IMG/VR virus record: IMGVR_UViG_3300029653_000083
Span: 74,236-138,235 of that record
Direction: 5' to 3' (one strand)
From: a virus
Lineage: Duplodnaviria > Heunggongvirae > Uroviricota > Caudoviricetes
DNA length: 64,000 nt
The notes beneath the pieces were generated by a model. It ran no database searches, was not told the DNA's origin, and saw only the letters and a program-made list of their open reading frames with translations. The translations under genes were made by a program, and so were the position numbers. Below are positions 2,651 to 38,947 of this stretch, piece by piece. Positions within the stretch are counted from its first letter, which is position 1; every line of letters starts with the position of its first letter.

Positions 2651-2685
2651 GGAAGTAGTAATACGGCAGTATTCCAATCCCAATC
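2651..2685 (-). promoter_or_regulatory. conserved element motif 2, copy a
   Basis: GATTGGGATTGGAATACTGCCGTATTACTACTTCC in gene orientation, ~35 nt upstream of CDS 2026..2619; 4 copies in window. Confidence 0.5.
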
Positions 2686-2749
2686 GTGCATGAGTTCGTA
2701 TGGGTCGATGTTTTTTCATGGTGTTCTCCTTTTTTGGAATGGTTTTTTA

Positions 2750-2770
2750 TGTGAACACCCCCAGTATAAC
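2750..2770 (-). promoter_or_regulatory. conserved promoter-proximal element motif 1
   Basis: tgtgaacacccccagtataac; family consensus TTGTGTGAACAATTCCAGTATA (gene orientation TATACTGGAATTGTTCACACAAA). Confidence 0.5.
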
Positions 2771-2778
2771 ATAAACCA

Positions 2779-2803
2779 TTAAAGAGGGCAACTACCCCCT
2801 CTT
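2779..2803 (-). terminator. putative hairpin terminator overlapping stop codon of 2792..3052
   Basis: AGAGGG-loop-CCCTCT stem followed by U-rich tract on minus strand. Confidence 0.3.
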
Positions 2804-3052
2804 CACAACCTTCGCACCATACTTATCAGCCCACTGACGAGCCAACGTCTTCGCCTGTTCCCTACAAGCACGACGACTGAAAGCCGCACTGAACGTATGA
2901 GAACGCTTCATATCCCAAACCTTCCCATTCTCACTATCATGCCGACGATACAATACAACCTTCAAAGCGATGACGGAACCATACTTGTCCCGCACCTTCT
3001 CAATGACCACGACCTTCTTGTTCTTGTGGCTTTTGTCGCTATGCTGGGACAT
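2792..3052 (-). CDS. hypothetical basic small protein
   Basis: ORF track; motif 1 variant upstream. Confidence 0.45.
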   Translation of the reverse strand: MSQHSDKSHKNKKVVVIEKVRDKYGSVIALKVVLYRRHDSENGKVWDMKRSHTFSAAFSRRACREQAKTLARQWADKYGAKVVKRG

Positions 3053-3091
3053 TCCGGCTCCTCCTAAAAAAGAAAAACAGCGAGCACAATA

Positions 3092-3116
3092 TTGTGCCCA
3101 CTGTTCCAGTGTAACA
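3092..3116 (-). promoter_or_regulatory. motif 1 (variant)
   Basis: ttgtgcccactgttccagtgtaaca upstream of CDS 2792..3052. Confidence 0.4.
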
Positions 3117-3291
3117 ATAGAGATTTGGAAAACGCTAAGAACTCAGTAATCCGACTCCAACCTCCGTGCGGCACCAAGCCCATGGTCGGTCAGCCTGATG
3201 TCCTCGTGTCCCAACAGAGTACGCCAATAGTCGGCATACCCGTTATCTATAAGGGACATAGCCGCGTCCTGATTATGTTCGTTAACCTCCG

Positions 3292-3861
3292 CTAAGCGTC
3301 CACGATGGTATGCGTCGCAGAGGAGCCTTTCGGCTTTTTTATCCAATGCATTCGCCTTTCGATATAATACGAGAACATGTACTTCCGACGCTCCCAGACC
3401 GGCGAATAAATCACATACTTGATGGTGTCCGTATCCCGCAGGATGACGCTGATTTCGCCAACACTGTCCCGTTGGATGAACTGCACGATACCTCGAACGG
3501 TTAGAGAACGCCGACTCAATAATATCCGGTCGCCAAGCTGAATTCGCTGCCCAACGAAACAATCATCTAATTCGGTCAGCAGTTCCGCACCGGTCTCGAT
3601 GGACGAGTGGAAACTGTTCAGCGGGTTACGGAGAAAACTTCCAACCTTACAGTTCCAGTCGCGCTGTGCGTCGTGCAAGGTTTGGAAGCCGACTCCGCCA
3701 GATGTTTGCAAACCATTATCCACTGGACAAAAGTGGGAGTATCCCCAACCTTTCGGCAGAAAATATTGCTCGTCGTCCCAAGTGCAGTGGAGTTCAGATT
3801 TAGCCCGATACTTAAATTCGGGAATGCTGTTACAGCATGGGCATGTAAGAAGGTTTCTCAC
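3292..3861 (-). CDS. hypothetical protein with N-terminal CPCC zinc-ribbon (Lar-like restriction-alleviation fold possible)
   Basis: ORF track; GTG start overlapping stop of upstream gene, GAAAGGA RBS; overlapping 3143..3562 ORF judged spurious. Confidence 0.45.
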   Translation of the reverse strand: MRNLLTCPCCNSIPEFKYRAKSELHCTWDDEQYFLPKGWGYSHFCPVDNGLQTSGGVGFQTLHDAQRDWNCKVGSFLRNPLNSFHSSIETGAELLTELDDCFVGQRIQLGDRILLSRRSLTVRGIVQFIQRDSVGEISVILRDTDTIKYVIYSPVWERRKYMFSYYIERRMHWIKKPKGSSATHTIVDA

Positions 3862-4115
3862 CCCAGTCCTTTCTGAGTCCTTAAGAGTTCGTCCAGTTTT
3901 TCCTCGATGCTTTCCAACCTCAAGCGCAACGCCTTCTGGCTTTCGTAGATGGCCGCAACCTCTCCTGAGACTTCGTAGAGGGTTTTGTTGCCATACATGT
4001 CATGCTTCTTGTCGGCCTGTTTCTCAAGCTTCGCTATCTCCCGCTCCCGTTGCGACGGCTTGCGTGATTTCAGATAGTCCCTGCATTCGGGACTGAACAT
4101 GTCCTCGTATCCCAT
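3858..4115 (-). CDS. hypothetical protein
   Basis: ORF track; start abuts stop of exonuclease gene. Confidence 0.5.
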   Translation of the reverse strand: MGYEDMFSPECRDYLKSRKPSQREREIAKLEKQADKKHDMYGNKTLYEVSGEVAAIYESQKALRLRLESIEEKLDELLRTQKGLG

Positions 4116-4700
4116 TTAGCGGCCAAATTCCTCTCTGCGCATGGCTTCATACAGCATGTTTTCCTGAGTCGCGTCGGACAAGGCGCGATGCTCTTCCACG
4201 TCACCGATACCATAGTCGCGGATAAGCACGGCAACCTTATGGCTTGGCTTTTCGGGATGGATTTTCCGGCTCATTTCCAACGTGTCCACGAACCGGTGTG
4301 GAAAGAAGAACATTCCACCGTTCACGGTTTTCATGGCCGCGTCCAAGAAACTTAAATCGAATGACGCGTTATGCGCCATGATGATGGTTCGCGGGCCAAG
4401 CCACTTGTCGAATCGGATGATGGCTTGGCTTACGTCGGGTTGTCCGATGACCATGCTGTCGTTGATTCCGGTGAGCGAGGTGATGTATTCGGGGATTGGC
4501 TGGTGTGGGTCAATCAGTTGCTCGTATCGGTCTACGAGTTTTCCGTCATGGATTTTCACGGCTCCGATTTCGATGAGTTTAGCCCCGTTTTCGGGTTTGA
4601 AGCCGGTGGTTTCGGTATCCAAGACCACGTAATCGTAGAGTGGTGTTTTCATTGGGTCGATTCTTCTGGGGTCTCGACTTTGGTATTTGTCCCAGCTCAT
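4116..4700 (-). CDS. DEDDh 3'-5' exonuclease (DnaQ / Pol III epsilon-like)
   Basis: Exo I VLDTETTG, Exo II HNASFDLSFL, Exo III HRALSDA motifs; AAGGAGAC RBS. Confidence 0.85.
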   Translation of the reverse strand: MSWDKYQSRDPRRIDPMKTPLYDYVVLDTETTGFKPENGAKLIEIGAVKIHDGKLVDRYEQLIDPHQPIPEYITSLTGINDSMVIGQPDVSQAIIRFDKWLGPRTIIMAHNASFDLSFLDAAMKTVNGGMFFFPHRFVDTLEMSRKIHPEKPSHKVAVLIRDYGIGDVEEHRALSDATQENMLYEAMRREEFGR

Positions 4701-4725
4701 GGTGTGGTCTCCTTGGATAAGTGAA

Positions 4726-4749
4726 TGTGTGGACGTTTCTAGTATAACG
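4726..4749 (-). promoter_or_regulatory. motif 1 (variant)
   Basis: tgtgtggacgtttctagtataacg, ~26 nt upstream of exonuclease start. Confidence 0.45.
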
Positions 4750-4750
4750 C

Positions 4751-5020
4751 CTATTTGGTGATGGCCTTGACACGCCCGTCCAGAACTGTTCTTACGACAT
4801 CCTCGAAGTCCGTGCCATCAGGCAATAAGTGGGAGTCTTGGAGGTTTCCGATAATCTCCACCAGTTCCGTATGCCCGTGCGGAGTGCGCTTATAGTCGCG
4901 GGTCGCACCCGCCTTGTATGCGCGACGCAACTGTAACGCCAACTGTTCCCGTGTGAGCGTGATGTAATCGCCTTCCTCGATGGGATACCGTTCTTCCAAT
5001 TCCTCGTTGAGAATGCTCAT
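4751..5020 (-). CDS. hypothetical protein
   Basis: ORF track. Confidence 0.45.
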   Translation of the reverse strand: MSILNEELEERYPIEEGDYITLTREQLALQLRRAYKAGATRDYKRTPHGHTELVEIIGNLQDSHLLPDGTDFEDVVRTVLDGRVKAITK

Positions 5021-5046
5021 TTTTTTTGTTTTTCCTTTCTGTTTTT

Positions 5047-5442
5047 TCAGACGTACATTCCCTCATGCCAGCCGTGTAGCAAACCCCATTCGGATAGTTT
5101 CCGGAACCATTTCTCGCATTCGTCAGCCACCTTGTTGGGATAATCCAACGTCGGGTTCACGTTGAGTAAATACTGGTAGTCGTAGGGTTGGCAGAAGTTC
5201 TCGTCCAACACGTCTATCTGCCAGTCGCTACCGTCCTTGGCAATCTCGACATTCAATGTCATGTCATGGTCGGGGGAGACTGAACAGCAGAGGTACCAAT
5301 ACCCCTCACGGTGGTCAGTGAACCCCAGTCGGCGCATGGTCGAATCTTCGGCGGGACTCATGCTAAGCGCCGCATTGTTCTGATGCTTCGTGTAGGTGAC
5401 GCCTATGGTCAAGAATCGGGGCGTGTTCTGAGTGTCGAACAT
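5047..5442 (-). CDS. hypothetical protein
   Basis: ORF track. Confidence 0.5.
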   Translation of the reverse strand: MFDTQNTPRFLTIGVTYTKHQNNAALSMSPAEDSTMRRLGFTDHREGYWYLCCSVSPDHDMTLNVEIAKDGSDWQIDVLDENFCQPYDYQYLLNVNPTLDYPNKVADECEKWFRKLSEWGLLHGWHEGMYV

Positions 5443-5450
5443 GTTCTCTC

Positions 5451-5822
5451 CTATTCTTCGCTTTCGCGCAGGTCGATTACCGGAATATGTGTATCGGTGG
5501 AATAGTGGACGGAATAAGGGTCGATTGTCCTATGCCGCCAGCTGACGCCACCTTCCACCGGCCAAGCCAGCCAGCCTATGCCGTCCAAATAGTTCAGAAT
5601 GCTGACGTGGACAATCCAACGGCACCATCTTGCAGGGCATATCACGTCGAACATGGGAGTATCCTCGGTTCCCGGTCGGCAGGAATGCCGTTGCCAAGAA
5701 CGCAGATACACGCGATAAAGCGCATAGGAATCATCTGTTGGCAGTTCCTCAGTGTCGAACACCGCGCGAGTTGGGTGGTCATCGAAGAGGATTCGTTTGC
5801 CGAATTTAGTTGCTTGATTCAA
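5451..5822 (-). CDS. hypothetical protein (TTG start)
   Basis: The first 17 codons of the 5451..5873 ORF are just the translation of motif 1 and its leader. AAGGAGG RBS precedes TTG at 5820-5822. Confidence 0.45.
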   Translation of the reverse strand: MNQATKFGKRILFDDHPTRAVFDTEELPTDDSYALYRVYLRSWQRHSCRPGTEDTPMFDVICPARWCRWIVHVSILNYLDGIGWLAWPVEGGVSWRHRTIDPYSVHYSTDTHIPVIDLRESEE

Positions 5823-5857
5823 TGCGTCCTCCTTTTTGGTTTTTGTCTTTGTTTTTG

Positions 5858-5880
5858 TTGTGAACAATCCCACTATAACA
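5858..5880 (-). promoter_or_regulatory. motif 1
   Basis: ttgtgaacaatcccactataaca. Confidence 0.5.
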
Positions 5881-5911
5881 CAAGGGGGGTAGAAAAACGC
5901 AACACGAAAAC

Positions 5912-6367
5912 CTAAGCCAGCGTTCGATTAAAAAAGAACTCTCTCTTCCCACCTCGATACAAACCCACACGCGAGCCAGACAAACGAAAACCAAAACGAC
6001 GGAAGAAACCCTCATACACCGGCAACAGTTCCTCCGGCACCGTCACCAGAGGAAACTGCTCGCACAGCAAACCCAACGCATATTCGACCAGAGCGGAACC
6101 GACTCCTCGATTCCGAAAGCCCTCGTAAACGCATAAAGTGCAAATCTTCCGTTCCGATGAAGTTCTCTTGAGAACGCAAAACCCCGCCAACCCATCATCC
6201 GTGCGGGCTAAAAGAATCGCACGGTCTTTCCCCAAGGAGGGGAGAACCGTGCGGTCGAACCACGTATCAAAGCCGGGATAATACGTTCGGATTATCTCCG
6301 GAATAGGAATAGAAGCCGCAGTTTCAGCATCCCGAACTACGTCAATCCTCAACGAAACTGAACACAT
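5912..6367 (-). CDS. GNAT family N-acetyltransferase
   Basis: Acetyl-CoA binding motif RNRGVGSALV; typical GNAT length. Confidence 0.7.
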   Translation of the reverse strand: MCSVSLRIDVVRDAETAASIPIPEIIRTYYPGFDTWFDRTVLPSLGKDRAILLARTDDGLAGFCVLKRTSSERKICTLCVYEGFRNRGVGSALVEYALGLLCEQFPLVTVPEELLPVYEGFFRRFGFRLSGSRVGLYRGGKREFFFNRTLA

Positions 6368-6587
6368 GAAAATCCGTCACACACTCGACATTGACATGAG
6401 TCGTATCATCCGGCCAAACATATAAAACCGGCATATAGCCGGACAGTTCTCGAACGGCGAGATTGCTAAAACCGTCCAAGTAGAGGGTTCCGGCCATGGG
6501 TTTGCCGTTCCAGTTGAAAATTGCGGGCTTGCCTTCGAGTTCCTTCCAGTTAATTCCGTCTTGGTAGGGGAGTTCTTTTAAGGTCAT
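6342..6587 (-). CDS. hypothetical protein
   Basis: ORF track; AAGGAAAA RBS; degenerate motif 1 at 6601-6627. Confidence 0.45.
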   Translation of the reverse strand: MTLKELPYQDGINWKELEGKPAIFNWNGKPMAGTLYLDGFSNLAVRELSGYMPVLYVWPDDTTHVNVECVTDFHVFSFVED

Positions 6588-6668
6588 TGGTTTTCCTTCT
6601 TTGGTGTGGACTATCTCACTCTAACACAACCGGAGTGGCGTGAAGAAGAAAAATCCCCCTCCCCACAT

Positions 6669-6884
6669 TCAGAATTCCGGCTCCTCGACATTCAGCAACA
6701 CCAGTTTCGGACGGCGGCGCAGAATCCTGCAATCCTCTGCCCACGCGTCCAAAATTTCGCAAGCCAATACGGGTGCTTCCGGAGCCAGAGTAGGCATGGT
6801 GTTCAGAATCGACTGGACGGAGTCTAAGTCTGCGAAGGGAAGTTCTGTCGCATTATTGGCTGCATCCAAAAAATAGTGGGGCAT
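6669..6884 (-). CDS. hypothetical protein
   Basis: Internal ATG at 6882-6884 preceded by GGAAGGAG RBS; longer track ORF has no RBS. Confidence 0.4.
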   Translation of the reverse strand: MPHYFLDAANNATELPFADLDSVQSILNTMPTLAPEAPVLACEILDAWAEDCRILRRRPKLVLLNVEEPEF

Positions 6885-7035
6885 TCGTGCTCCTTCCAAA
6901 AATTGAAAAGAAAAAGCCTGTGGGTAACGATTTTCCACAGGCATTCTTGGCTTATTATTCGATTTCGCGAGGCTTCAGAACTTTGTCTGAAACACCAGCG
7001 CAATCGCGCTCAATAATAGACTTTTTTACCGACTT

Positions 7036-7200
7036 TTATTCGTCGCACAAGTCGGTGTTGCGTCTGCCATATTTGTTTCGTTTCTTGGCTTGCGGATTCC
7101 AAGCGCTACCTGCATCCCATTCGATGTGAGTGGAACGGTTTTCCCTGTGAGTGTTGTTCTTGTTGGCATTGCCGGTGTTAATCCAGTCGTGGTTGCTCAT
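7036..7200 (-). CDS. possible small Asn/His/Lys-rich protein (54 aa)
   Basis: Manual: ATG at 7198-7200 to TAA; below the 60-aa threshold of the ORF track; weak RBS. Confidence 0.2.
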   Translation of the reverse strand: MSNHDWINTGNANKNNTHRENRSTHIEWDAGSAWNPQAKKRNKYGRRNTDLCDE

Positions 7201-7212
7201 TTTTTTCTACTT

Positions 7213-7587: not shown

Positions 7588-7597
7588 TTTCGTTTTC

Positions 7598-7960: not shown

Positions 7961-7996
7961 TCTTTTTCCTTTTTCTGTATGGGTCAAACCCTTGTT

Positions 7997-10415: not shown

Positions 10416-10437
10416 GGTTTCTCCTTCTCGGCATATC

Positions 10438-10461
10438 TTGTGTGAACAATTCCAGTATAGC
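10438..10461 (-). promoter_or_regulatory. motif 1
   Basis: ttgtgtgaacaattccagtatagc. Confidence 0.55.
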
Positions 10462-12330: not shown

Positions 12331-12696
12331 CTAATCAACCAAACGCCCGAAACCATCAAACGGAACCAACGAATACACCAACCAGCCAACAAGCGCCAGC
12401 AATGCAAGCGCCGCAATCGCATACACCAGCGTACCTACGAACAAGCCAGCCAAAAACACGTTCATCTGCCGTTTGCGTTGCTCCAGCAGCTCATACCATT
12501 CGCTTTCGCACCGGTCGAATGCGTCAGCATCCATGCCGGTGCCTCCATGGGCTTGAAGCCAATCGCGTACGGTCGGCATGGGAGGCAGCGGGTCGGATAT
12601 GCAAGCGTGCGGTACAAGCGCGGTTTTAAGCCCTTGCCAAACGCCGTTGAAAAAGAACGCGGGAAAACGTGCGGCCTTCACCGTGCTGGGTATCAT
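12331..12696 (-). CDS. hypothetical membrane protein (C-terminal TM)
   Basis: ATG at 12694-12696 overlaps stop of upstream gene (ATGA), AGGTG RBS. Confidence 0.45.
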   Translation of the reverse strand: MIPSTVKAARFPAFFFNGVWQGLKTALVPHACISDPLPPMPTVRDWLQAHGGTGMDADAFDRCESEWYELLEQRKRQMNVFLAGLFVGTLVYAIAALALLALVGWLVYSLVPFDGFGRLVD

Positions 12697-13412
12697 TTTT
12701 TCACCTGCTGCCTTCGTCCGACAATCTTCTTGCCGCCCACGCTCCGCAACCATGCCAAGCCATGACCATAGGAGACCATACCGGCTTCGACGGTTGGATT
12801 CTGCTGGAACATGTAATGCACTTCCGCGAGTCCATTGCCTCCGTTTGTTTGCAGAATACGAATCCCGTAATCCTTTTCGACTGCCTTGACCGCCATGTCC
12901 CGTTCGAGTTCGTCGAACCAGCCGTAGAGCGGGAGCATGGCGAATGCGGTCAATGCGCCTACGGCGATGAACCGCCAACATGTTTTCGCTCCTACCAACA
13001 ATGCGATTGCCGCCACGAGAATTCCAATGACGGCGATTCCCGTCAACAGTTGACGCCATTTGCCGTTGCAGTCGTATTCGACGGGCGCGTACGGGTTGGT
13101 GGGGGTTGGTGTTGGAGGTGCGGTTTTGTTGGTTTTGCGTGTGGCGGGCTTGTAGGCTTTCGGAGCGGTTTTGTTTACTGTTGAAGTAGTTTTCTCGCTC
13201 GTCTTGCTGGCGGTTTCGTCGGTGTTTTCGGTGGACTTGTCCGCTGTTTTCGGTTCGAATTTCAATGGTGGTGCCGGTGGGTTCAACATCTTTCGTTCCG
13301 TCTTCTTCACGATTTCTTGCAGTTCGATGGTGGTGGACGAGTCGGGTTCATCCATCGGTTCCTGACCTAACATCATGAGGTCGTTTTCCAGTGAGATGTT
13401 CCGTTCTTTCAT
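12693..13412 (-). CDS. hypothetical membrane protein with Thr/Pro/Lys-rich linker
   Basis: Start MKERNISL with AAAGGAAG RBS; two predicted TM helices near C-terminus; motif 2 upstream. Confidence 0.5.
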   Translation of the reverse strand: MKERNISLENDLMMLGQEPMDEPDSSTTIELQEIVKKTERKMLNPPAPPLKFEPKTADKSTENTDETASKTSEKTTSTVNKTAPKAYKPATRKTNKTAPPTPTPTNPYAPVEYDCNGKWRQLLTGIAVIGILVAAIALLVGAKTCWRFIAVGALTAFAMLPLYGWFDELERDMAVKAVEKDYGIRILQTNGGNGLAEVHYMFQQNPTVEAGMVSYGHGLAWLRSVGGKKIVGRRQQVKK

Positions 13413-13443: not shown

Positions 13444-13490
13444 AGAGAAGTAGAAGGAAGGAGTAATACGGCAGTCTTCCAATTCCAATC
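13444..13490 (-). promoter_or_regulatory. conserved element motif 2, copy b
   Basis: GATTGGAATTGGAAGACTGCCGTATTACTCCTTCCTTCTACTTCTC (gene orientation). Confidence 0.5.
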
Positions 13491-13500: not shown

Positions 13501-13809
13501 TCAGAGGATTCGGGTTCCCTTGCGGGTGACGAGCATGATTCTGTTTTCGTGACGGTTCTCGAAAACGTCCCAATTGCCACTCAGGACAGCCAAGCACACG
13601 TTGCCTTTGATGAGGTTCCAACGTTCGTCGCAGTTGGATACGACGTGCTTCCAGTTGATTGGATTGGGCTTGTGGTGGGAGGTTTCCACGATAGCTTCGT
13701 TCATGGGCTTGTCCGCGTAGGTGTGGTCGTAGGTGTTGTCTCCGGCGACTACGCTGATGGTGCCGTTGTCGTGGAAGATTGGCTGGTAGTAGGTTTTGGT
13801 GTCGTTCAT
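13501..13809 (-). CDS. hypothetical protein
   Basis: Internal ATG (MNDTKTYYQ) with AAGGAG RBS. Confidence 0.5.
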   Translation of the reverse strand: MNDTKTYYQPIFHDNGTISVVAGDNTYDHTYADKPMNEAIVETSHHKPNPINWKHVVSNCDERWNLIKGNVCLAVLSGNWDVFENRHENRIMLVTRKGTRIL

Positions 13810-13835
13810 TTGTTCTCCTTGGTTGGCTCCGCCTG

Positions 13836-13863
13836 TTTTATGTGGACATTTCCAGTATAGCAC
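13836..13863 (-). promoter_or_regulatory. motif 1
   Basis: gttttatgtggacatttccagtatagca. Confidence 0.5.
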
Positions 13864-13937
13864 GTTTGGATAAATATACAAAACAAGACACGTCCACACA
13901 AAAAGCCCCGCCAAAACGACGGGGCCACAAACCAAAA

Positions 13938-14138
13938 CTATCGATTCATGCTCAATCGAATCTTGACCGCGACGACCAGCAACGCGACTATGAGGGCGCA
14001 GACCGACACGACGCCGAACGTGCGGCCAAACGTGAACAGCCAAGTGCCGAACGAGTAGATGCCGAACGCGACTGCGGTGGTCACTCCACAGAACGCGATG
14101 GTGACGAGCGTCATGAGCAGAACATCCTTGATATGCAT
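13938..14138 (-). CDS. small membrane protein (2 TM)
   Basis: Internal ATG (MHIKDVLL) with AAGGAG RBS. Confidence 0.4.
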   Translation of the reverse strand: MHIKDVLLMTLVTIAFCGVTTAVAFGIYSFGTWLFTFGRTFGVVSVCALIVALLVVAVKIRLSMNR

Positions 14139-14174
14139 TTTTCTCCTTTTGGTGACGGGTTTTGCGAACCCTTG

Positions 14175-14200
14175 TTTGTGTGAACAATTCCAGTATACAT
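14175..14200 (-). promoter_or_regulatory. motif 1
   Basis: tttgtgtgaacaattccagtatacat. Confidence 0.55.
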
Positions 14201-16122: not shown

Positions 16123-16148
16123 TTTGTGTGAACAATTCCAGTATACCT
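16123..16148 (-). promoter_or_regulatory. motif 1
   Basis: tttgtgtgaacaattccagtatacct. Confidence 0.55.
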
Positions 16149-19908: not shown

Positions 19909-21138
19909 TCACGGGTGAAAAGCCAGCTTCCGCATTTCACAATGCCTCCGATACCACGCTTTCTCCCGAGCGCACAGTCCACGACGGTGAGTTAGACCCG
20001 ACAGTGTGCTCTCATGGCTCGTCCAAGAATCCTGAACTGTCCGCAATCCCACATGCACGCCATCATATGAGCGGATAAGGTTACGCGCATGCCGTCGGCT
20101 TGCACGCAACGCCTTATGGTGCATGCGGATAAGAATACTGCCGTCATCCTGTACGCTGTATACGCGTTTCAGGAATGTGAGTTGACCGGTGCGACAGTCC
20201 ACTATGCGGGTCTTGCGCTTGTTCAACCGCAATCCCAATTGATTGACATGCCGCTCGTAACCGGCCAGCACACGTTCGGCCTGTTCACGATTCTTGCAGA
20301 AACAGTAGGCATCATCCATATACCGTCCGTAGAATCCTTGCGACATGCACCAGTGGTCAACCTTGTTCAAATACCAGATAGCCATGGTTTGGCTTGTCTG
20401 ATTGCCTAAACCCAAGTGAGGTTCGTCCAATACGAAGATTCTCAATACGGTTAGAATCCGTTCCACATCCTGCTTCTCCCGTCCGGTGCGGGCGATGCTC
20501 CGGTACAGGGTGGAAATCATATCGAACGCTCGTTGGGAGCTGATACTTCCGAAATAGTTGGAACAGTCGAAGATGACAGCATACGGATGCTCCCATTTGC
20601 CCAAAGCCCGCTTATAGTGTAGTTCGAACCGTTTTCGGGCGAACGATGTTCCACGTTTCGGTAGGCTTGCCGCATTATCGTATATCAGTTGGCTTTCCAC
20701 GATGGGGACGAGACTGTTGTCGCATAAGGCGCGTTGCACCACCCGGTCTCGGAAGGATACCGCGCTGATGTGGCGGAGTTTGCCTCGTTCGGAAATGTCG
20801 AATCGGATTGGCGCTCTCTTCTTGTATGTGCCGTCCTCTAATTCTTGGGCGAGTTTCCAACAGTTGACGGCACGCCTATTGTCGAAGTTCAACACTGTGT
20901 TTTTCCATGTGACGCCGCGTTTGCATTTTCTTGCGGCTTGGTAGAGCGCGTCGAATCCGAATGTTTGTTGGAAGTCGATGTAACGGTGGAGCTTCCTGTA
21001 CTTATCATCCGAGCGTTGTTGCAGTCTGCGTTGGCGTCTTCTACGTCTTTGACTCGCATTCACGATTTTAATGCTTCCTTCACTAGGGAAAGAGAAAAGA
21101 ATGGTTGAGGGCAGGTCGTCGGCAACAACCCAAGACAT
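19909..21138 (-). CDS. diversity-generating retroelement (DGR) reverse transcriptase
   Basis: RT motifs RHISAVSFRDRVVQRAL, FDCSNYFGSI, YMDDAY. Motif 4 reads LGNQTSQ (SQ signature of DGR RTs rather than the QGxxxSP of group II/retron RTs). TR lies 195 nt upstream. Alternative GTG start ~21060 possible. Confidence 0.85.
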   Translation of the reverse strand: MSWVVADDLPSTILFSFPSEGSIKIVNASQRRRRRQRRLQQRSDDKYRKLHRYIDFQQTFGFDALYQAARKCKRGVTWKNTVLNFDNRRAVNCWKLAQELEDGTYKKRAPIRFDISERGKLRHISAVSFRDRVVQRALCDNSLVPIVESQLIYDNAASLPKRGTSFARKRFELHYKRALGKWEHPYAVIFDCSNYFGSISSQRAFDMISTLYRSIARTGREKQDVERILTVLRIFVLDEPHLGLGNQTSQTMAIWYLNKVDHWCMSQGFYGRYMDDAYCFCKNREQAERVLAGYERHVNQLGLRLNKRKTRIVDCRTGQLTFLKRVYSVQDDGSILIRMHHKALRASRRHARNLIRSYDGVHVGLRTVQDSWTSHESTLSGLTHRRGLCAREKAWYRRHCEMRKLAFHP

Positions 21139-29344: not shown

Positions 29345-29451
29345 GCGGTTATAAAGAATCTAAAAAGTGGCGTGTCGATATTTGGGTTCCCGACACGCCA
29401 AGCGGAACATTTCATGCTTTTCCAACCGTCAAACGGTCAGAAAAGTTTTCT

Positions 29452-29479
29452 CATACGGCAGTATTCCAATCTCCAATCT
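29452..29479 (-). promoter_or_regulatory. conserved element motif 2, copy c
   Basis: GATTGGAGATTGGAATACTGCCGTATGA (gene orientation), ~115 nt upstream of sortase start, overlapping pilin 3' end. Confidence 0.45.
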
Positions 29480-31209
29480 CACGCCTTGCGACGAAGCAGC
29501 AGGGCGGAAGCGCCAGCCAACAGGACGGTCATCACGCCGAAGATGGACAGCCAGACCGCACCGGTCTTCGGCATGTCAGCGATGTTGCGGGCGTTGATGA
29601 CGGTCACTCCATCGTCACTGGTCTTGGAGGCCAGATGGTTGGCATCATCCTTGAACTTGGTGAGGGACGAAGTGCTGGTGTTATGGTCTTTGGACTGGGC
29701 CACGCCAACGGTCAGAGTGAACTCCGGCAGAATGCTGCCGCCGAACGGACTCTTGGTTTCAGTCACCGTGTAGGCACCGTACAAGCCCTTCAAGGTGATG
29801 ACGCCATTGTTCTTATCGGTGGTGGTGATGTCGGCGCTTGCGGTAGCGGCCTCAGTCGAGTCGGCAACACGATACTCGTTATCACCCACCTTGACGAACT
29901 TGACGATATTGCTCTTGGCATCCTTGATGTTGAACACGGCACCCGCGAGCGGAGCATTGTTCGTATCGGTCTTGGTCAGAGTGAACTTGCCGACGTACAC
30001 GTAGTTGGTGTCGCCCGGAGTCTTCTCATGGTCGGTGACGGTGTTCGGATTATGGGAGTATTCGACCTCGCTCGTGTTGGTGTCAACACCGTCCACGTGG
30101 GCGTTCTTGTTCACGGTCATGTCATAAGTGACAAGCACTTCCGCATCGACCGGGAACGTGGTCTTGGCGGCGATGATGTCGGAAGAACCATCAGCGGTCG
30201 GGGCGAACAGGATATGGAACTTGCCCGCCTCGGTCGTCACCTTGTAATCCTTGCCAGCAGTCAAAGCCTTACCACCGACAGTGACATTCACACTATCCGG
30301 GTTGAAAGTCAGACCATCCGAATACGTATCGTTGAGCGCATAATAATAATGGTCGTAGCCAGTCCAAACAGGCACCGCGCCGCCCATCGTGAAAGAGACC
30401 TTCTTGCCGATGGAGGTCTTGGCTACCGCATAATATTTCTTCCCTGCTTGGCGAGCCCCCTCATCCTCATGGTCCTCACCGATTTTCTCATCCACATCAC
30501 CATTCTCAACAGAGGTGATAGCCTTCCTGACTGCGGCGTCATGCACCTTATAGTCCACGGTGCCCAGCGTGTAGGTCTTGTCGCCGTTCTTCAACGTGGT
30601 CTTGCCGTCGATGCCGGTGCCGTTGAACATGACGATGGACGCCTGACCGGCCGTGGTGGTGTCCACGACCGCATACACGCCCGGACGGACTGATGCGGTC
30701 ATATGCTTGGCGTCGGCGCCCTTGGCGAACGCGGTGCCCTTGTCGCCGGTGACGGCGGCCTCGTTCTTCAACTGGTCGATGAAGTCACGAAGCTTGCCAG
30801 CCCACGGGCTGTTCTCGGAATCAAGGAGATTCTGCACGACCCACACCATCGGATTGGACGCATTATAGTCGTATCCGGCAGTCTGGTCTTTCTTGGACTG
30901 GGTGTCAATATGGGCTTTAGTCAGTGCGTCAGCAATGGCAGAAGCCTTGCCCGCGTCAATCAGGTCAAAGCCGGTAATATTAGTACCATCAGTCTGCGCA
31001 TACGAATAGTAGGCGAGCGGCACAGCCTTCAACGTGCGATTGCTAATATCACCATTAGCAGCGACGGTCAACGTCTGACGAGCAGCCTCACCAAGCTTGG
31101 ATGCGTCAACACGAGTATCAGCCGCCATGGCGGAGCCAACTCCAGCCAAACCCATGGCACCGGCCACAAGCGTGGCGACCGTTGCCTTCAACAGGTTTTT
31201 GGTTTTCAC
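29479..31209 (-). CDS. sortase-dependent pilin / fimbrial subunit (MPKTG sorting signal, E-box)
   Basis: Signal peptide; E-box-like YTVTETKSPFGG; C-terminal ADMPKTG + hydrophobic + RRKA; adjacent class C sortase. Confidence 0.7.
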   Translation of the reverse strand: MKTKNLLKATVATLVAGAMGLAGVGSAMAADTRVDASKLGEAARQTLTVAANGDISNRTLKAVPLAYYSYAQTDGTNITGFDLIDAGKASAIADALTKAHIDTQSKKDQTAGYDYNASNPMVWVVQNLLDSENSPWAGKLRDFIDQLKNEAAVTGDKGTAFAKGADAKHMTASVRPGVYAVVDTTTAGQASIVMFNGTGIDGKTTLKNGDKTYTLGTVDYKVHDAAVRKAITSVENGDVDEKIGEDHEDEGARQAGKKYYAVAKTSIGKKVSFTMGGAVPVWTGYDHYYYALNDTYSDGLTFNPDSVNVTVGGKALTAGKDYKVTTEAGKFHILFAPTADGSSDIIAAKTTFPVDAEVLVTYDMTVNKNAHVDGVDTNTSEVEYSHNPNTVTDHEKTPGDTNYVYVGKFTLTKTDTNNAPLAGAVFNIKDAKSNIVKFVKVGDNEYRVADSTEAATASADITTTDKNNGVITLKGLYGAYTVTETKSPFGGSILPEFTLTVGVAQSKDHNTSTSSLTKFKDDANHLASKTSDDGVTVINARNIADMPKTGAVWLSIFGVMTVLLAGASALLLRRKA

Positions 31210-34178: not shown

Positions 34179-34552
34179 TTGTCGCCGTTCTCCTTCTTGC
34201 CGGTGTTGGTCTGATTCTTGTTCAACGTCTCATACAGGCGGTGTTCCGCTTGCCAACGTTTGACACGGGATTTGCTGGGATGGTTGACCCACCGGTATAC
34301 GCAACGTTCTATGCGCTTGTATCCGAGGACTTCCGGCCCGAGATTGTGACTGCGGAATATCTCCGAGGGACGTTCCCCTTGCAGATATCGGAGGGTCACT
34401 TCGTCTTGGAATTGGGTGGTGAAGATTACCCACCATCCGTGCTTGTTTTTCAAGACGTTGACGACTTCCGGTCGTCTTCCCAAGGCCAAAGCCTCGTCTG
34501 CGGTCAGAAGCTTCGCCGGGGATGTGTTCGGTTTTTTCGGTTTTTCGACCAT
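34175..34552 (-). CDS. hypothetical protein (possible HTH)
   Basis: ORF track; 4-nt overlap with dnaB. Confidence 0.5.
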   Translation of the reverse strand: MVEKPKKPNTSPAKLLTADEALALGRRPEVVNVLKNKHGWWVIFTTQFQDEVTLRYLQGERPSEIFRSHNLGPEVLGYKRIERCVYRWVNHPSKSRVKRWQAEHRLYETLNKNQTNTGKKENGDK

Positions 34553-34574
34553 GCTTTGTTTGTCCTTTCCAAGG

Positions 34575-36338
34575 TCAGATTGCGTCCGGGAACTGTTCGT
34601 TCGGAGAGAATTTGAGGAGTTTCACAGTCGCTCCCTCACGCCATTTGTTCCACGCTTTGATGGTGATTCCGACGATGCGTCGGCGGGTTGGACGGTCGCT
34701 GTGCGCTCCACGCTTGTTGATGTCGAACAGCGTGTTGCGGAGTACGAGAATGGGGCTTCCCTCGTCAAGGTTGGCGCCGGTGGCGAGCATGTCGAAGAAC
34801 CGTTCGCACGCCTCACCGTCGATTTCGTTGAACGTCCAGTAGAGGAGCGCGGCCATGCTGATGGACATGAGATGGTTGCTTTTCGTGTAGAACGTGCTGG
34901 CCTGTCGTAGCGTATCCTCCAATTGCGGAGTGCTTTCGATGAATGCCAACAGTTCATTTCGGGTCGGTGACATGTTGTTGACGCATGCGGCTTCCACACC
35001 CAACTGTTCGCTCAGATAGATGGAACGGGCCACGGTGGAAAGCTGTTTGGCGTTGTTACGGCCTTTCAGTTCGAGCACGTTAGCCATGGTGCGGCTCTTG
35101 CCCGCATCCATGGTCTCCTGCGTGTCTTCGGGCAGTCCGCGAATGACCAGAGTGCGGAACGGAACACCGGATTCGACGCATGCGAGGAGCCTGTGCTGGC
35201 CGTCCAACAAGCGTCCCGTGTTGCTGAATTTGATGGCTTCGCCGTTCATTTTCCAAGCCTTCTGCGCCATGGTTCGGGCGAACAGTTCGACCTGTGTGCG
35301 GCTCACGTTGCGGTTGTTGGTGTTCACGCCGAGCATTTCCTTGGCAACGTCCGGAGTGATGGTTTCGACCCGTCCGGTGATGCTATCCCAATCGTATTCG
35401 TCGGTTTCACCGGCATAGGATGGCGTGGCCTTGGGTGCTGGCTCTTCCGGTTTCAAATGGATGAGCAACGTGGTTTTCGGAGCGCCGGAATGACGTCTGA
35501 TTTCGGTTTTCGGTGGTTTCACTTCGACCGTCTCGTACTGTTCGGATTCCTCGACCTGATTCATGGCGAACGCGAACGCTGTCATGGTGAAAGCGAGCAT
35601 GAACCTGTCCACGCTACGTTTCGGAGGGAACTGTCTCATCCCGTCGATGATGCGGGTGGCGTCCGAATGGGTGATGTATGGGCAGTGGTTCACAACCGTG
35701 TCCAGTCCGTCCTCGTATTCCTTATGGGTGAGGAAGACGAATGGTGCGAGGGGAGTACGCGCCTGTGCCATTCCCCTGAAGCATTGGCCGACCTCATTGT
35801 AGATTTCACCAACCTGACGGTAACGTGAAACAGTGTCGATGCCGTACTCGTCCACGGGATTCGTGTACTCGTATTCGTTGCTTTTGAAGATGCGTTCGTT
35901 GTATCGACTGGCTTCGCGTAGTCCGGGGCAACGTCCGAAACCGAGTGTGGTTCCGCTGCTTTTCGTACCGTCAGTCCGTTTCAGATTGTTCTTGCTCAGC
36001 CAGTAGGCTTCCATGTCCGCGATGAATGTTTTCGCCGCGACTTTCTTGTCGAGGTTTCGTCCGGTCATACGGGCGAAGTATTCGCCTTCGACGCCGGTGA
36101 GTACCGGCAGTCCGGTTCCGACGAACAGATTATCAGGCAGTAGGCCGTACCATTCGGGGTTGATTTCATGGTCGCTCATGTAGGAGAGAATCCGTCCTAC
36201 GCTGTCACGGTCGATGAACACGGTTCGCGCGTTGGCGAACGGGTCAACGTCGAGATTCAACGCCTTGCATGTCGGGAGGAGGTCTTTCTGAATCATGGTC
36301 ATGAACCGTGGTTCGGTTTTAATGTCTTTATTAGGCAT
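34575..36338 (-). CDS. ParB/sulfiredoxin-domain protein (587 aa)
   Basis: C-terminal half carries ParB-N-like motif FSNTGRLLDGQHRLLA; N-terminal half unassigned. Confidence 0.55.
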   Translation of the reverse strand: MPNKDIKTEPRFMTMIQKDLLPTCKALNLDVDPFANARTVFIDRDSVGRILSYMSDHEINPEWYGLLPDNLFVGTGLPVLTGVEGEYFARMTGRNLDKKVAAKTFIADMEAYWLSKNNLKRTDGTKSSGTTLGFGRCPGLREASRYNERIFKSNEYEYTNPVDEYGIDTVSRYRQVGEIYNEVGQCFRGMAQARTPLAPFVFLTHKEYEDGLDTVVNHCPYITHSDATRIIDGMRQFPPKRSVDRFMLAFTMTAFAFAMNQVEESEQYETVEVKPPKTEIRRHSGAPKTTLLIHLKPEEPAPKATPSYAGETDEYDWDSITGRVETITPDVAKEMLGVNTNNRNVSRTQVELFARTMAQKAWKMNGEAIKFSNTGRLLDGQHRLLACVESGVPFRTLVIRGLPEDTQETMDAGKSRTMANVLELKGRNNAKQLSTVARSIYLSEQLGVEAACVNNMSPTRNELLAFIESTPQLEDTLRQASTFYTKSNHLMSISMAALLYWTFNEIDGEACERFFDMLATGANLDEGSPILVLRNTLFDINKRGAHSDRPTRRRIVGITIKAWNKWREGATVKLLKFSPNEQFPDAI

Positions 36339-36882
36339 GGTTTCCTTCCTTCAATCGTTTCAGCATCCGGTAGGTTTTGGGAGCGCAACCGGATGGATTG
36401 TGTTCCTCTTTCCGATACTGTTTTTCGAGTTCGCTCCAATGGTCGATGATGGTTTTCCAATCGTCCGACACGTCGCGCATGAGACTCAGATAGGCACGTG
36501 CGACTGGCACCATGTCGAACATTCCGAGTATCCGACGTAGGTCTCCGGGGTCTTTCGGAGTGTCCTCGCAACCATGTTCGCGCGTGCCGTTCACGGTCAT
36601 TGTGATTCCGGTGAGCCGTTGGACGATGGCGAGCGAGCTGAGGCCCACGTCACCGTTGGCGAGCCATGCGGCGAACAGTTCCAACGGAAGTCTGGGACTG
36701 TCCGTCATGCCGTCGGAGGCTGGGTTGAGGTTGGCAACGAGCCTGTTCTTCGGAACGTCCGCGATGATGTCCGGCTGGGTTTCGGAGTCGGGCATCCGAC
36801 CGTAGACGAGATGGTTATTGACGAGTATGGACGGTTGTCGGCCACCATATACGCCGATGGTGCAAACGGTGTCTTCGACCAT
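36331..36882 (-). CDS. hypothetical protein
   Basis: ORF track; 8-nt overlap with downstream gene. Confidence 0.5.
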   Translation of the reverse strand: MVEDTVCTIGVYGGRQPSILVNNHLVYGRMPDSETQPDIIADVPKNRLVANLNPASDGMTDSPRLPLELFAAWLANGDVGLSSLAIVQRLTGITMTVNGTREHGCEDTPKDPGDLRRILGMFDMVPVARAYLSLMRDVSDDWKTIIDHWSELEKQYRKEEHNPSGCAPKTYRMLKRLKEGNHA

Positions 36883-36885
36883 GGT

Positions 36886-37110
36886 TCACGCTTCCATCCA
36901 GTGGATGCTTTCGTTGAGGAAGTCTCTGATTTTGCGGAGGGTTTCTATGTCGTTGACGACGACGCTGGTCGCGGTGTCGCTGTCGGTGATGGTGAACATG
37001 AGTTCCTTGCCGAAGCTGGGGGATTGGAGGATGGTGAGCTTGTTTGTTCCCTCGTTGTCGATGACTTGGAGTGTGGATGTGTTGCCGTTGTCGTATTTGG
37101 TTGCGCTCAT
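36886..37110 (-). CDS. hypothetical protein
   Basis: ORF track. Confidence 0.45.
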   Translation of the reverse strand: MSATKYDNGNTSTLQVIDNEGTNKLTILQSPSFGKELMFTITDSDTATSVVVNDIETLRKIRDFLNESIHWMEA

Positions 37111-37237
37111 TGTTTCTGTGGTCTTTCCCGTTCTTGTGGAATGTTTTGTGTGGGCGAGGTCAGCTTAACACATTAGGTGGGGGTGTGCAACCGTTCGGGG
37201 ATTCGCGGTCGGATGATTTGCGTTCGACCATACCCTT

Positions 37238-37264
37238 TGTTATACTGGAATCGTCCACAAAAAA
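37238..37264 (+). promoter_or_regulatory. motif 1 (plus orientation)
   Basis: tgttatactggaatcgtccacaaaaaa in divergent intergenic region. Confidence 0.5.
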
Positions 37265-37310
37265 AGGGAGCCACACACTCCCAACCACGCCAGAAAAAAA
37301 AGAAGAAACC

Positions 37311-37487
37311 ATGAGCAAACAGACGGAAAACAACATCAACCTGACATTGACACTCATCACAATCGTCAGCGCACTCCTCATGTGGAGACAGGATTACGGC
37401 CACGTGGTAATGGCAATCACCAGCATCACATTTCTACTCAGCTCCACCGCACTGTTCGCTCACTTCATCAAGAAACTCGACGCCTAA
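37311..37487 (+). CDS. small membrane protein (2 TM, 58 aa)
   Basis: Internal ATG (MSKQTENNINLTLTLITIV..) downstream of motif 1. Confidence 0.4.
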   Translation: MSKQTENNINLTLTLITIVSALLMWRQDYGHVVMAITSITFLLSSTALFAHFIKKLDA

Positions 37488-37557
37488 AAAACAAAAAGGA
37501 ATGCCCCAGCCCGAACGGACTGGGGCATAGGCATGTTCGCAAGAACGAAGGAAACCA

Positions 37558-37938
37558 ATGGACGATAAAAACAACACCGAACGAGAGCCGAGAACCGAAG
37601 TGGAACGACTCCTGTTCAAAAACGAACGCATGCAGGACGCGTTACTCAGCCTCAAGGACACCATGAGCAGAATGATTGGCGAAGGCCGACTGCCAAACGA
37701 CGACGAGGTACACCAATGGTTTGAGGGAATCGACCGCAAACTCGAACACGAGGCCGCTGACCGTGAGGTGTTGCTGTTCAACCATGGGGCCATGACCACA
37801 GTGCTCCCGAAGTCCACTGAACGATACCAACCCGACCTTCAAGTCCGATATCAGGAAATTCTCACCACATGCAACAAAGCGTATGCGGACGCCGACTACA
37901 AATATTGGATTGGCCGTTTCCAACAGGCCGGACTCTGA
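37558..37938 (+). CDS. hypothetical protein
   Basis: ORF track. Confidence 0.5.
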   Translation: MDDKNNTEREPRTEVERLLFKNERMQDALLSLKDTMSRMIGEGRLPNDDEVHQWFEGIDRKLEHEAADREVLLFNHGAMTTVLPKSTERYQPDLQVRYQEILTTCNKAYADADYKYWIGRFQQAGL

Positions 37939-37997
37939 CCTGAAAAACGCAATCCGAGCACAGTGGACAACACTGAAAGGAGTATTCGGACAGGACA

Positions 37998-38339
37998 ATG
38001 CCGGAAACCATACAGACATACCATCCAACGTTCGAGAAGGCCAAGAAGCTCTTCAACCTGCGTAAAAGATTGTGGGAGATAGCCGACGGTAAAAGCGACG
38101 GAACAATCTCATATGAGGAGGCGAACCATCTCGCCGTGGACGCGGTGGCGACCGCCAACGGAGGAATGCCACGCGCCACGAGCGGCCCCATGGTACGACT
38201 CTGCAAGCTTTGCACCAACGGTTGGATTCGTGAAGCGGCAAACGAGATGGGCTTGGTTTACCCGGACTTGGACTGCCCGGAACGGTGGGGCAAACATCGA
38301 GACCATAGCCGTAAAAAGGAAAGGAAGGCAACGGTTTGA
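37998..38339 (+). CDS. hypothetical protein, tandem paralog B1
   Basis: Shares C-terminal CTNGWIREAANEMGLVYPDLDCPERW with the next gene (CENGWIREAVRKIPELYPYLDHPDLW). Confidence 0.5.
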   Translation: MPETIQTYHPTFEKAKKLFNLRKRLWEIADGKSDGTISYEEANHLAVDAVATANGGMPRATSGPMVRLCKLCTNGWIREAANEMGLVYPDLDCPERWGKHRDHSRKKERKATV

Positions 38340-38677
38340 GCGGCAACGGATTCGGCAAGGAAGACATAAGCAGAACAGCCATTCCGGCACGCCCATACGC
38401 CAAGGATATGGCTACCATCAACCGTCTGATAGCAAGGTTGCAAACCATTTCGGACGATAAGGCCAAAGGGAAAATCACATTCCAACAGGCGAACAAGAAG
38501 GCTGTGGAAGCAATCCACAAGGCACGGAACACCAAGTCGAAGTCCCTGCAACGCAAGCCATTAGATTATTTAGAACGTATCTGCGAGAACGGTTGGATTC
38601 GGGAAGCTGTGCGAAAGATTCCCGAACTGTACCCGTATCTCGACCATCCAGATTTGTGGCTTCGTAAAGGCGTCTGA
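38336..38677 (+). CDS. hypothetical protein, tandem paralog B2
   Basis: See B1; ATGA overlap. Confidence 0.5.
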   Translation: MSGNGFGKEDISRTAIPARPYAKDMATINRLIARLQTISDDKAKGKITFQQANKKAVEAIHKARNTKSKSLQRKPLDYLERICENGWIREAVRKIPELYPYLDHPDLWLRKGV

Positions 38678-38907
38678 TGTATTCCAAAGAGCAGATATGT
38701 TGCATGGTTTCTCTCATAATATTGTCGGCGTTGAGCTTGGCCGCGCTGGTGCATTACGCTCGACTGTCGATAGGGAGAATGAGTCGGATGCCTGACGAGA
38801 AATCCCGTTCAGACCTGTTCAACTATCGGCTGATGACCGTCGTGTCACTGCTGGTGTTGTCGGTTTCGGTGGGTTCCATCATCGTCTACGGTTCCTCTCT
38901 CAAATAG
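38677..38907 (+). CDS. small membrane protein
   Basis: ORF track; two hydrophobic segments. Confidence 0.4.
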   Translation: MYSKEQICCMVSLIILSALSLAALVHYARLSIGRMSRMPDEKSRSDLFNYRLMTVVSLLVLSVSVGSIIVYGSSLK

Positions 38908-38947
38908 ATTGGAAGACTGCCATATTACTAATTCCTTCTACTTCTCA
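38908..38947 (+). promoter_or_regulatory. conserved element motif 2, copy d
   Basis: GATTGGAAGACTGCCATATTACTAATTCCTTCTACTTCTC ~55 nt upstream of AAA ATPase start. Confidence 0.5.

Follow-up and report, generated by a model that had tools for sequence, protein, structure and literature searches.

Solitary type II-C CRISPR repeats between the genes of a megaplasmid-related element, and their possible role as crRNA-mimicking decoys of Cas9

The DNA considered here is a stretch of 64,000 nucleotides (nt) from the IMG/VR virus record IMGVR_UViG_3300029653_000083 (positions 74,236 to 138,235 of that record), which we call the window and number from its first letter. The proteins encoded in the window include a SpaA-type pilin, a sortase, DnaB, a ParA-like ATPase, a reverse transcriptase and a GmrSD-like nuclease, and a short motif recurs between its genes. 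The 18-nt core of this motif, ATTGGAAKACTGCCRTAT, has exactly four matches in the window, at 2661-2678 (-), 13466-13483 (-), 29453-29470 (-) and 38908-38925 (+), where 0.13 copies would be expected by chance; none of 100 dinucleotide-preserving shuffles reached four. An earlier reading of the window, made from its letters without outside data (the sequence-only reading), had reported these four copies as a regulatory DNA or RNA element. The motif is real, and we find that the copies are almost certainly derived from CRISPR (short palindromic repeats that are clustered and regularly interspaced): they are solitary repeat units (SRUs) that match the repeat of a type II-C Cas9 array and lie in the sense of the CRISPR RNA (crRNA). 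This identity escaped the sequence-only reading because sequence from outside the window is needed to see it.

Three of the copies are full units of 36 nt. The first, c1 (2644-2679, minus strand; GATTGGAATACTGCCGTATTACTACTTCCTTTTGCT), is identical to the consensus of the type-A array repeat described below at 33 of 36 positions, and c2 (13449-13484, minus strand; AATTGGAAGACTGCCGTATTACTCCTTCCTTCTACT) and c4 (38907-38942, plus strand; GATTGGAAGACTGCCATATTACTAATTCCTTCTACT) at 34 of 36 each. The remaining copy, c3 (29453-29471, minus strand; GATTGGAATACTGCCGTAT), is a half unit that holds only the 5' 19 nt, the part predicted to pair with the trans-activating crRNA (tracrRNA); it agrees with the repeat at 18 of these 19 positions, the one change being a T at loop position 9, and diverges past position 19. 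The 3' extension TTCCTTCTACTTC is exact in c2 and c4 only, and a G16A change in c4 is specific to the window lineage. The copies are spaced 9-16 kb apart, and no tandem array was found in the window. A leading 'GATTGG(n)', which the sequence-only reading had placed at the start of the motif, is present at c1-c3, where it partially repeats the first six bases of the unit itself; it is absent at c4 and variable in length in relatives. The duplicate GATTGG abuts c1 at 2680-2685 (-) and c2 at 13485-13490 (-), and GATTGGA precedes c3 at 29472-29478 (-). Among near-identical relatives, the 5' border of the unit is the most variable spot, with GATTGG, GATTGGA or GATTAG duplications that come and go (flank clusters 0, 3 and 4); slippage or nicking at the repeat border are possible causes.

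All four copies are intergenic and on the same strand as both flanking open reading frames (ORFs), with the next ORF 31-107 nt downstream. Copy c1 lies in the 5' leader of the ORF at 2026-2619, between that ORF and a box of a second motif (motif 1) at 2750-2768 (-), which agrees with the sequence-only reading. The box, TATACTGGGGGTGTTCACA, has a -35-like TTGCCC 17 nt upstream and is predicted to drive the c1-containing transcript, c1 being 65 nt past this promoter-like site. Motif 1 (TATACTGGnnnnGTYCACA, with an extended -10) occurs 17 times in the window where 0.14 copies are expected, each time in gene direction (for example 2750-2768(-), 10441-10459(-), 16127-16145(-) and 37241-37259(+)), and is the 34-bp promoter motif that was published for the Bifidobacterium megaplasmid pMP7017 and is proposed there as a transcription-factor site (PMC10832533). 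The c1 leader also holds, at 2700-2745 (-), an inverted repeat GGTGTTC...GAACACC, which might form a hairpin in the leader ahead of c1; it covers the transcript start and the Shine-Dalgarno-like AAGGAGAACACC that belongs to a small, non-conserved ORF.

The other three copies follow closely on a gene. Copy c2 lies between the ORFs at 13501-14187 (upstream) and 12693-13412 (downstream), both on the minus strand, and its partial duplicate starts 10 nt after the upstream stop codon. The duplicate at c3 directly adjoins the SpaA-type pilin gene (29479-31209, minus strand) at its TGA stop, and the last base of the TAG stop of the ORF before c4 (38677-38907, plus strand) is the first G of c4, which is followed by an AAA ATPase ORF starting at 39004 (+). 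Counted in this way, the distance from the preceding gene's stop codon to c2, c3 and c4 is 10, 0 and -1 nt, respectively. Between c3 and the sortase gene there is a terminator-like hairpin with a T-run at 29361-29399 (-), GGCGTGTCG...CGACACGCC ACTTTTT, whose stem shows a compensatory G-C to U-A change in one relative (L109; relatives are given by such L labels where a label is needed). Given this terminator and the proximity of c2-c4 to stop codons, the association of the units with the 3' end of the upstream gene is at least as strong as that with the downstream gene.

These positions bear on what the motif might do. The sequence-only reading had rejected a conserved leader peptide, and rightly so: the only candidate small ORF of c1 has a 1-nt indel in relatives, c4 is in a different frame with respect to the upstream stop, and both variable core positions are non-synonymous. 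As for a regulatory element, what stands is that the units are non-coding and oriented with transcription, and what falls is the tie to downstream genes. A CRISPR-independent operator, promoter or leader acting in cis on the next gene would fit the position of each copy 31-107 nt before a co-oriented ORF, and type II-C repeats of Neisseria and Campylobacter do carry internal promoters (PMC12080349); some array variants in the present family contain TATACT or TATTAT. A consensus scan, however, found no sigma-70-type promoter in the array repeats, the common variant having just TATTAC. At c3 and at several relatives' sites the unit adjoins a stop codon, with a terminator after it and, beyond that, a motif-1 promoter distinct from the unit. 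The downstream genes are not related to one another, and the conserved part of the unit is the half predicted to pair with tracrRNA and not the gene-proximal half. We consider such a cis-regulator extremely unlikely, and advise against annotating the motif as the promoter or operator of either the sortase or the ATPase operon. A repeat-embedded promoter of the Neisseria/Campylobacter type, which would call for a conserved (extended) -10 box at the repeat's 3' end, is not supported either: the repeat ends in CTTCCTTCTACT, and the -10-like hexamers lie mid-repeat and vary by array (TATTAC, TATTAT, TATACT).

The identity of the motif came from a scan of the core against IMG/VR, which returned more than 100 loci. 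In several contigs the motif recurs at a 64-bp period, forming CRISPR arrays of 17-34 repeats with mostly 28-nt spacers, and the type-A array repeat is the 36-nt GATTGGAAGACTGCCGTATTACTACTTCCTTCTACT. The arrays adjoin cas9 (1108 aa; Pfam Cas9_a/RuvC_III/HNH/Cas9_Topo, domains that were first defined on the Actinomyces Cas9), cas1 and cas2 in a type II-C layout. Over most of its length, the window shares 94-99.9% identity with many array-bearing contigs of 100-217 kb, and it therefore belongs to the same element family; together with the near-identity of the copies to the array consensus, this identifies them as SRUs. The array-bearing contigs are distant relatives of pMP7017: DnaB of the window and another backbone protein have 53% and 52% amino-acid identity, respectively, to pMP7017 or B. 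longum megaplasmids, relatives carry a transfer-messenger RNA (tmRNA) and a tRNA array, and the GC content of the window's family is about 52%. Within the 64-kb window itself, no cas9, cas1 or cas2 (by tblastn) and no tracrRNA were found. One close relative, L167, has a type C system. Megablast of 20-kb window pieces gave no match in PLSDB plasmids or INPHARED phages, nor did the 36-nt repeat match INPHARED phages. A core scan of a bacterial and archaeal genome collection found no species-representative genome carrying the repeat; its 47 core matches have random tails and were set aside as chance, about 69 chance matches being estimated from the size of the collection.

The copies also agree with the published definition of SRUs used by SRUFinder (PMC10651486), by which a full match has at least 90% identity over at least 90% of the repeat length, a partial match covers 50-90% of it, and no other full or partial repeat lies within about 100 bp. 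Copies c1, c2 and c4 are full matches at 92-94% identity, and c3 is a partial match that covers 19 of 36 nt (53%) with 18 of 19 identical (95%). No further core match lies near any copy, the only neighbouring repeat sequence being the 6-7-nt partial duplication at c1-c3, and all four copies lie between ORFs of a megaplasmid-related element, with no adjoining cas genes.

To locate the tracrRNA, cas9 loci were taken with 6-kb flanks. RNAduplex and local alignment inside the array loci gave just noise, one match being a repeat-like insert in a tRNA gene. A conserved region of ~170 nt, which immediately precedes cas9 on the same strand, comprises a motif-1 promoter, ...ACGGCAAGTTTCAATC, a hairpin TCCGGTGACAGACCGGA and a strong terminator, and CAATC...ACGGCA, the 3' part of the anti-repeat sequence, is complementary to the 5' part of the repeat. 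The tracrRNA gene and cas9 occur together in 16 contigs, and three repeat/anti-repeat types can be told apart: type A, with the repeat 5' part GATTGGAAGACTGCCGT and the anti-repeat ACGGCAAGTTTCAATC; type B, with GTTTGAATATATGTCGT and ACGACATATAGTTTAAAC; and type C, with GTTTGGATATATGCCGT and ACGGCATATAGTCTAAAC. When repeats and anti-repeats are aligned, a duplex of 17 pairs is 97% paired, compared to 30-42% in slid registers, and three of its pairs change on both sides among types A, B and C, i.e., in a compensatory manner. This covariation identifies the upstream RNA as the tracrRNA and the strand reading GATTGG... as the crRNA sense strand. The Cas9 proteins are 84-95% identical across the three types. 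The T-run of the tracrRNA terminator abuts the cas9 start codon (L155 at about 5800-6000; also L151-L158 and L159-L172), such that cas9 expression may depend on read-through.

The arrays have a degenerate first repeat, a terminator abutting that first repeat, their newest perfect repeats proximal to cas2, and transcription towards cas2, an architecture that agrees with type II-C systems as described (PMC12080349, PMC3737331); anti-repeats at the type II-C loci of actinobacteria had eluded an earlier survey (PMC3737331). In one relative (L069 3800-3965(+), with homologues in L071, L076 and L141), a conserved region between the last tRNA gene and the array holds a motif-1-like box, the terminator abutting the degenerate first repeat, and a possible 35-codon ORF with a hydrophobic C-terminus, MNSLMGNNQAMSNAKQKAESTGVFLSTLLLLRVFV. 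For the window copies, predicted pairing with the type-A anti-repeat ranges from -14.6 to -20 kcal/mol, the latter value for c1, and that with types B and C from -6.5 to -13.7 kcal/mol. The predicted duplex has a lower stem of 8 bp and an upper stem of 6 bp with a small internal loop between them, and a further 5 bp are possible.

How the units are placed and conserved was followed through 1.04 Mb of family sequence, in which solitary copies fall into 22 flank clusters, 18 of them genuine family sites. The sequence-only reading had proposed a motif search in relatives, with absence at homologous loci counting against it; the copies are there, each window copy being present at the homologous site in 8-19 relatives (the c1 site in 8, the c2 site in 8, and the c4 site in common to 19 sequences). 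Orientation was judged by motif-1 promoters, as an ORF-based test was noisy. Within 3 kb of the 18 sites, 34 motif-1 promoters are on the unit strand and 4 on the opposite strand, and of the 16 sites with such a promoter, 14 have the nearest one on the unit strand. From this bias, and from the co-orientation of all four window copies with genes, the units are predicted to be transcribed in the crRNA sense. Many units are just past a stop codon and before a terminator or motif-1 promoter, and others directly follow a promoter. Adjacency to a stop codon was considered as a rule, but it holds for 4-5 site classes only, others being 10-60 nt downstream or after promoters, and thus it is a tendency.

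Conservation along the unit is uneven. The 13 core positions predicted to pair with tracrRNA have no mismatch across the 18 site classes, and all core mismatches are at position 9, which is in the predicted internal loop and was the degenerate K of the sequence-only consensus, or at position 18. Positions of the 3' half, by comparison, differ in 2-12 of the 18 site classes, and in at least four classes, including that of c3, a perfect 5' half is accompanied by a 3' half that is decayed or missing. A search of the family sequence turned up no 3' half standing alone. The 5' module predicted to pair with tracrRNA is thus the part of the repeat that is kept.

One explanation of such a distribution is that the units are relics, i.e., fragments of arrays or mini-arrays left by recombination of repeats with one another or of spacers with their targets, or by aberrant Cas1-Cas2 activity, which persist neutrally and act at most as short patches of homology promoting mosaicism. 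Several relatives point in this direction. In flank cluster 12, a DNA-methyltransferase-like ORF that runs on in L149 is cut off in L131 and L087 precisely at a solitary repeat, beyond which the DNA is unrelated (the TGA stop of the truncated ORF is a T plus the GA of the repeat), and comparison of these contigs indicates that solitary repeats mark rearrangement breakpoints. In addition, solitary repeats abut tRNA genes that are truncated in the D-loop or after the anticodon stem (L069 1630-1665(+), and L103 on the minus strand, cluster 17) and intact in siblings, and the gene downstream of the unit in L072 differs from about 45 nt past it. Half units, mini-arrays and the variable GATTGG duplications at the 5' border would also be expected of scars. 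On the other hand, the units are all intergenic and strongly biased in orientation with transcription, their asymmetric decay spares exactly the bases predicted to pair with tracrRNA, where neutral scars should decay uniformly and lie in either orientation, and a half unit is kept even in pMP7017, which has no cas9. We therefore regard scars alone as an unlikely explanation. As a separate observation, a 107-nt tRNA gene in L076 (8103-8209(-)) carries a repeat-like insert of about 36 nt, GATGGAAATATTTGCCGTATTGATTCTTCTTTCTGCT.

Spacers of the family's arrays offer a hint at what the units may be for. Of 97 unique spacers, two match other family members. The window holds one such protospacer, at 57304-57331 (-), with a 27/28 match to a spacer between type-A repeats in a three-repeat mini-array of L065; other siblings match this spacer at 28/28. 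We take this match as evidence of mutual targeting among these plasmids. The gene that is hit encodes a 426-aa backbone protein whose PLSDB plasmid homologues are in Bifidobacterium megaplasmids only, and it is not the counterpart of RepA or RepB of pMP7017. Beside it, at 56655-56741, the 22-bp unit AAAGTGGGCACTTTCGACACGG is present in four perfect tandem copies followed by a long A+T-rich stretch; these repeats are iteron-like and may be an origin or partition site. Elsewhere in the window, a 409-aa ORF at 19909-21138 (-) has a reverse-transcriptase domain (RVT_1, E=3e-13), and Rfam at gathering thresholds found nothing, and ARAGORN no tRNA, in the window. Another mini-array, in L050 (minus strand), lies within a tRNA cluster and has two intact repeats and a third with a degenerate 5' half; the spacer before the degenerate repeat, ACAGGAAACCAAAAGGAGCAAAAATGAG, resembles a ribosome-binding site plus start codon, and no target for it was found in the family sequence examined.

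Type-A SRUs occur in contigs with a type A system and also in contigs with a type B or C system, and a type-C-like solitary unit also exists. The complete plasmid pMP7017 of Bifidobacterium breve has no cas9, and its CRISPR system is of type I-E (PMC10832533). It carries a half unit, GATTGGAAGACTGCCGTATTTAT, at NZ_KM406416.1 182188-182207 (= L150 2501-2520) on the minus strand, which is intergenic, co-oriented, located after the stem-loop that follows a stop codon, and identical in L049. As is asked of an RNA anti-CRISPR (Racr), the mimicked system is thus one that threatens the element: type-A spacers match the family, and type-A units are carried by elements with type B or C systems or without cas9.

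On this basis we tentatively favor the view that the units are RNA decoys, or crRNA mimics of the Racr kind, that would damp Cas9 interference between sibling megaplasmids; judged from sequence, we place it somewhat short of an even chance. Each unit would be transcribed within an ordinary plasmid mRNA, as part of a 5' leader, an inter-cistronic spacer or a 3' untranslated region (UTR), and its 5' 17-24 nt would anneal to the anti-repeat of the tracrRNA. The SRU:tracrRNA hybrid, with or without cleavage by RNase III, could then be taken up by Cas9, giving complexes whose 'guide' is the plasmid's own sequence upstream of the unit. Because this sequence is followed on the plasmid itself by a repeat and not by a protospacer adjacent motif (PAM), the complexes would be harmless to the plasmid, as in any array. 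They would compete with genuine crRNAs, and Cas9 interference against co-resident or incoming sibling megaplasmids would be blunted.

The same geometry allows for another role, in which the units are hard-wired guide units resembling extraneous crRNAs, small CRISPR/Cas-associated RNA (scaRNA) or crRNA-like RNA (crlRNA). Here the 20-28 nt upstream, often the 3' end of an ORF, would serve as the spacer, and together with tracrRNA and Cas9 would repress partly matching promoters or cleave sibling plasmids that have the gene in question but lack the protective repeat after it. A type II crRNA does have its guide 5' of the repeat, some units are about 20 nt after a promoter, as in a stand-alone crRNA gene (cluster 9), siblings with empty sites exist, the 14 repeat-proximal bases of the upstream flank in L141 match another family locus, and extraneous crRNAs are documented in type II-C systems (PMC12080349). 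For 14 of the 18 sites, however, the 14-nt flank seed has no second target in the 1.04 Mb, and at the remaining four the second match is an empty or rearranged version of the site itself or, in one case, a match of 18 nt, which is not the pattern of a crRNA-like regulator. Moreover, no motif is common to the sequences after empty sites and the flanks of the two known protospacers, and type-A units persist in plasmids whose type B or C tracrRNA pairs with them less well. This role appears to us decidedly unlikely. A bolder variant, to which we give only a slim chance, is that a repeat placed after chosen sequences turns the ends of plasmid mRNAs into Cas9 guides, with the plasmid's own DNA immune because a repeat stands in the PAM position, and with siblings that have the gene but no repeat being cut, possibly via a rival's Cas9 and tracrRNA; breakpoints at SRU borders would then be scars of Cas9-driven recombination, and CRISPR repeats would be both markers and junctions of megaplasmid mosaicism.

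Pairing with tracrRNA could also serve the mRNA itself. The SRU:tracrRNA duplex might be an RNase III site at which polycistronic transcripts are cut, tagging them for processing or stability, with tracrRNA acting as a trans-acting small RNA and the expression of flanking genes coupled to the presence of a type-A system. Units do lie at cistron boundaries or in 3' UTRs, co-oriented with transcription, and the predicted duplex (8+6 bp, possibly 5 bp more) is long enough to resemble a natural RNase III substrate. RNase III processing is reportedly dispensable in characterised type II-C systems, according to work on N. meningitidis. Processing tags are also at odds with the lack of a common functional theme among the flanking genes (pilin/sortase, AAA ATPase, unknowns) and with the fact that the type of an SRU does not follow that of the tracrRNA on its own plasmid; we think them very unlikely.

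Returning to decoys of Cas9, several points weigh against this proposal. The main objection is that elements with the cognate type-A Cas9 carry type-A SRUs at the same sites, where the units would dampen their own system too. The zero-mismatch pattern partly reflects a search that required at most three core mismatches, and the invariance of the paired positions could partly mirror how array repeats themselves vary. The relatives have diverged by just 1-6%, so that conservation at homologous sites says little, and the breakpoints at the 5' edge of some relatives' units (the truncated methyltransferase and tRNA genes) fit an origin by recombination for which no RNA function is needed. With just two protospacers among the 97 spacers, no PAM can be called, and the paper on Racrs was found to hold no functional test of a type II SRU (PMC10651486).

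If the units do act as decoys, Cas9 would have in them a natural RNA inhibitor or mimic that is tracrRNA-directed, and large conjugative plasmids of gut Actinomycetota would be fighting each other with Cas9 and repeat mimicry. Beyond that, the analysis yields a family of compact (1108 aa) Cas9 orthologues with their tracrRNA, which had so far been difficult to identify in type II-C systems of actinobacteria, three pairs of repeat and anti-repeat that co-vary and may be orthogonal, and a short RNA module of about 19 nt as a candidate Cas9 modulator.

Elements of this kind are not without precedent. SRUs on phages and plasmids are an established class, some of them proven RNA anti-CRISPRs, and a survey of IMG/VR found them for every CRISPR type except VI (PMC10651486). 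The units described here share with SRUs and Racrs (Faure et al. 2019; Camara-Wilpert et al. 2023, PMC10651486) a single intergenic repeat on a mobile element, away from cas genes, and, as predicted here, transcription from a nearby promoter or with the preceding gene, as for RacrIC1, which lies 11 nt after acrIC5 (PMC10651486). The proposed action is also the same, namely to mimic the repeat of a crRNA and tie up Cas components. However, validated Racrs mimic host systems and bind Cas6, Cas7 or Cas5 directly (PMC10651486), whereas the window units would act via pairing with tracrRNA, and their cognate type II-C system is on sibling plasmids, sometimes on the same plasmid. The number of copies differs as well, with at least four per 64 kb and 18 site classes in the family, and activity here is predicted from sequence.

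Extraneous crRNAs (ecrRNAs) of type II-C arrays are another close likeness, since they combine a repeat with a non-spacer upstream flank, can pair with tracrRNA, and can load Cas9 with a non-immune guide (PMC12080349). The counter-measures against them, a degenerate extra repeat and an upstream terminator (PMC12080349), are seen at this family's own arrays. Yet an ecrRNA is an unwanted by-product at the array end, whereas the window units are full-strength repeats dispersed in transcribed operons with no shielding terminator. With scaRNA of Francisella, the long-form tracrRNA (tracr-L) of S. pyogenes, CreA/CreR, crlRNAs and regulatory mini-arrays (Workman 2021; Shmakov 2023; bioRxiv 10.1101/2024.12.27.630466), the units would have in common a repeat-derived RNA outside an array and a non-immune effector role; those regulators have a spacer-like segment that partly matches a promoter and are usually beside cas genes, in contrast to the units of this family, which are scattered and mostly without a second target. 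The megaplasmid pMP7017 and its relatives (PMC10832533, PMC8313286) share the backbone, the tmRNA and tRNA array, sortase-dependent pilus genes and the motif-1 promoter with the window's family, and the passages of these papers found by term search do not describe the SRU motif. pMP7017 differs in having a type I-E system and no cas9, whereas many members of the window's family carry a type II-C Cas9. Compared with known SRUs, what appears unusual here is the predicted dependence on tracrRNA pairing, with half units that keep just this module, together with several operon-embedded copies per plasmid and three co-varying Cas9 repeat/tracrRNA types within one family.

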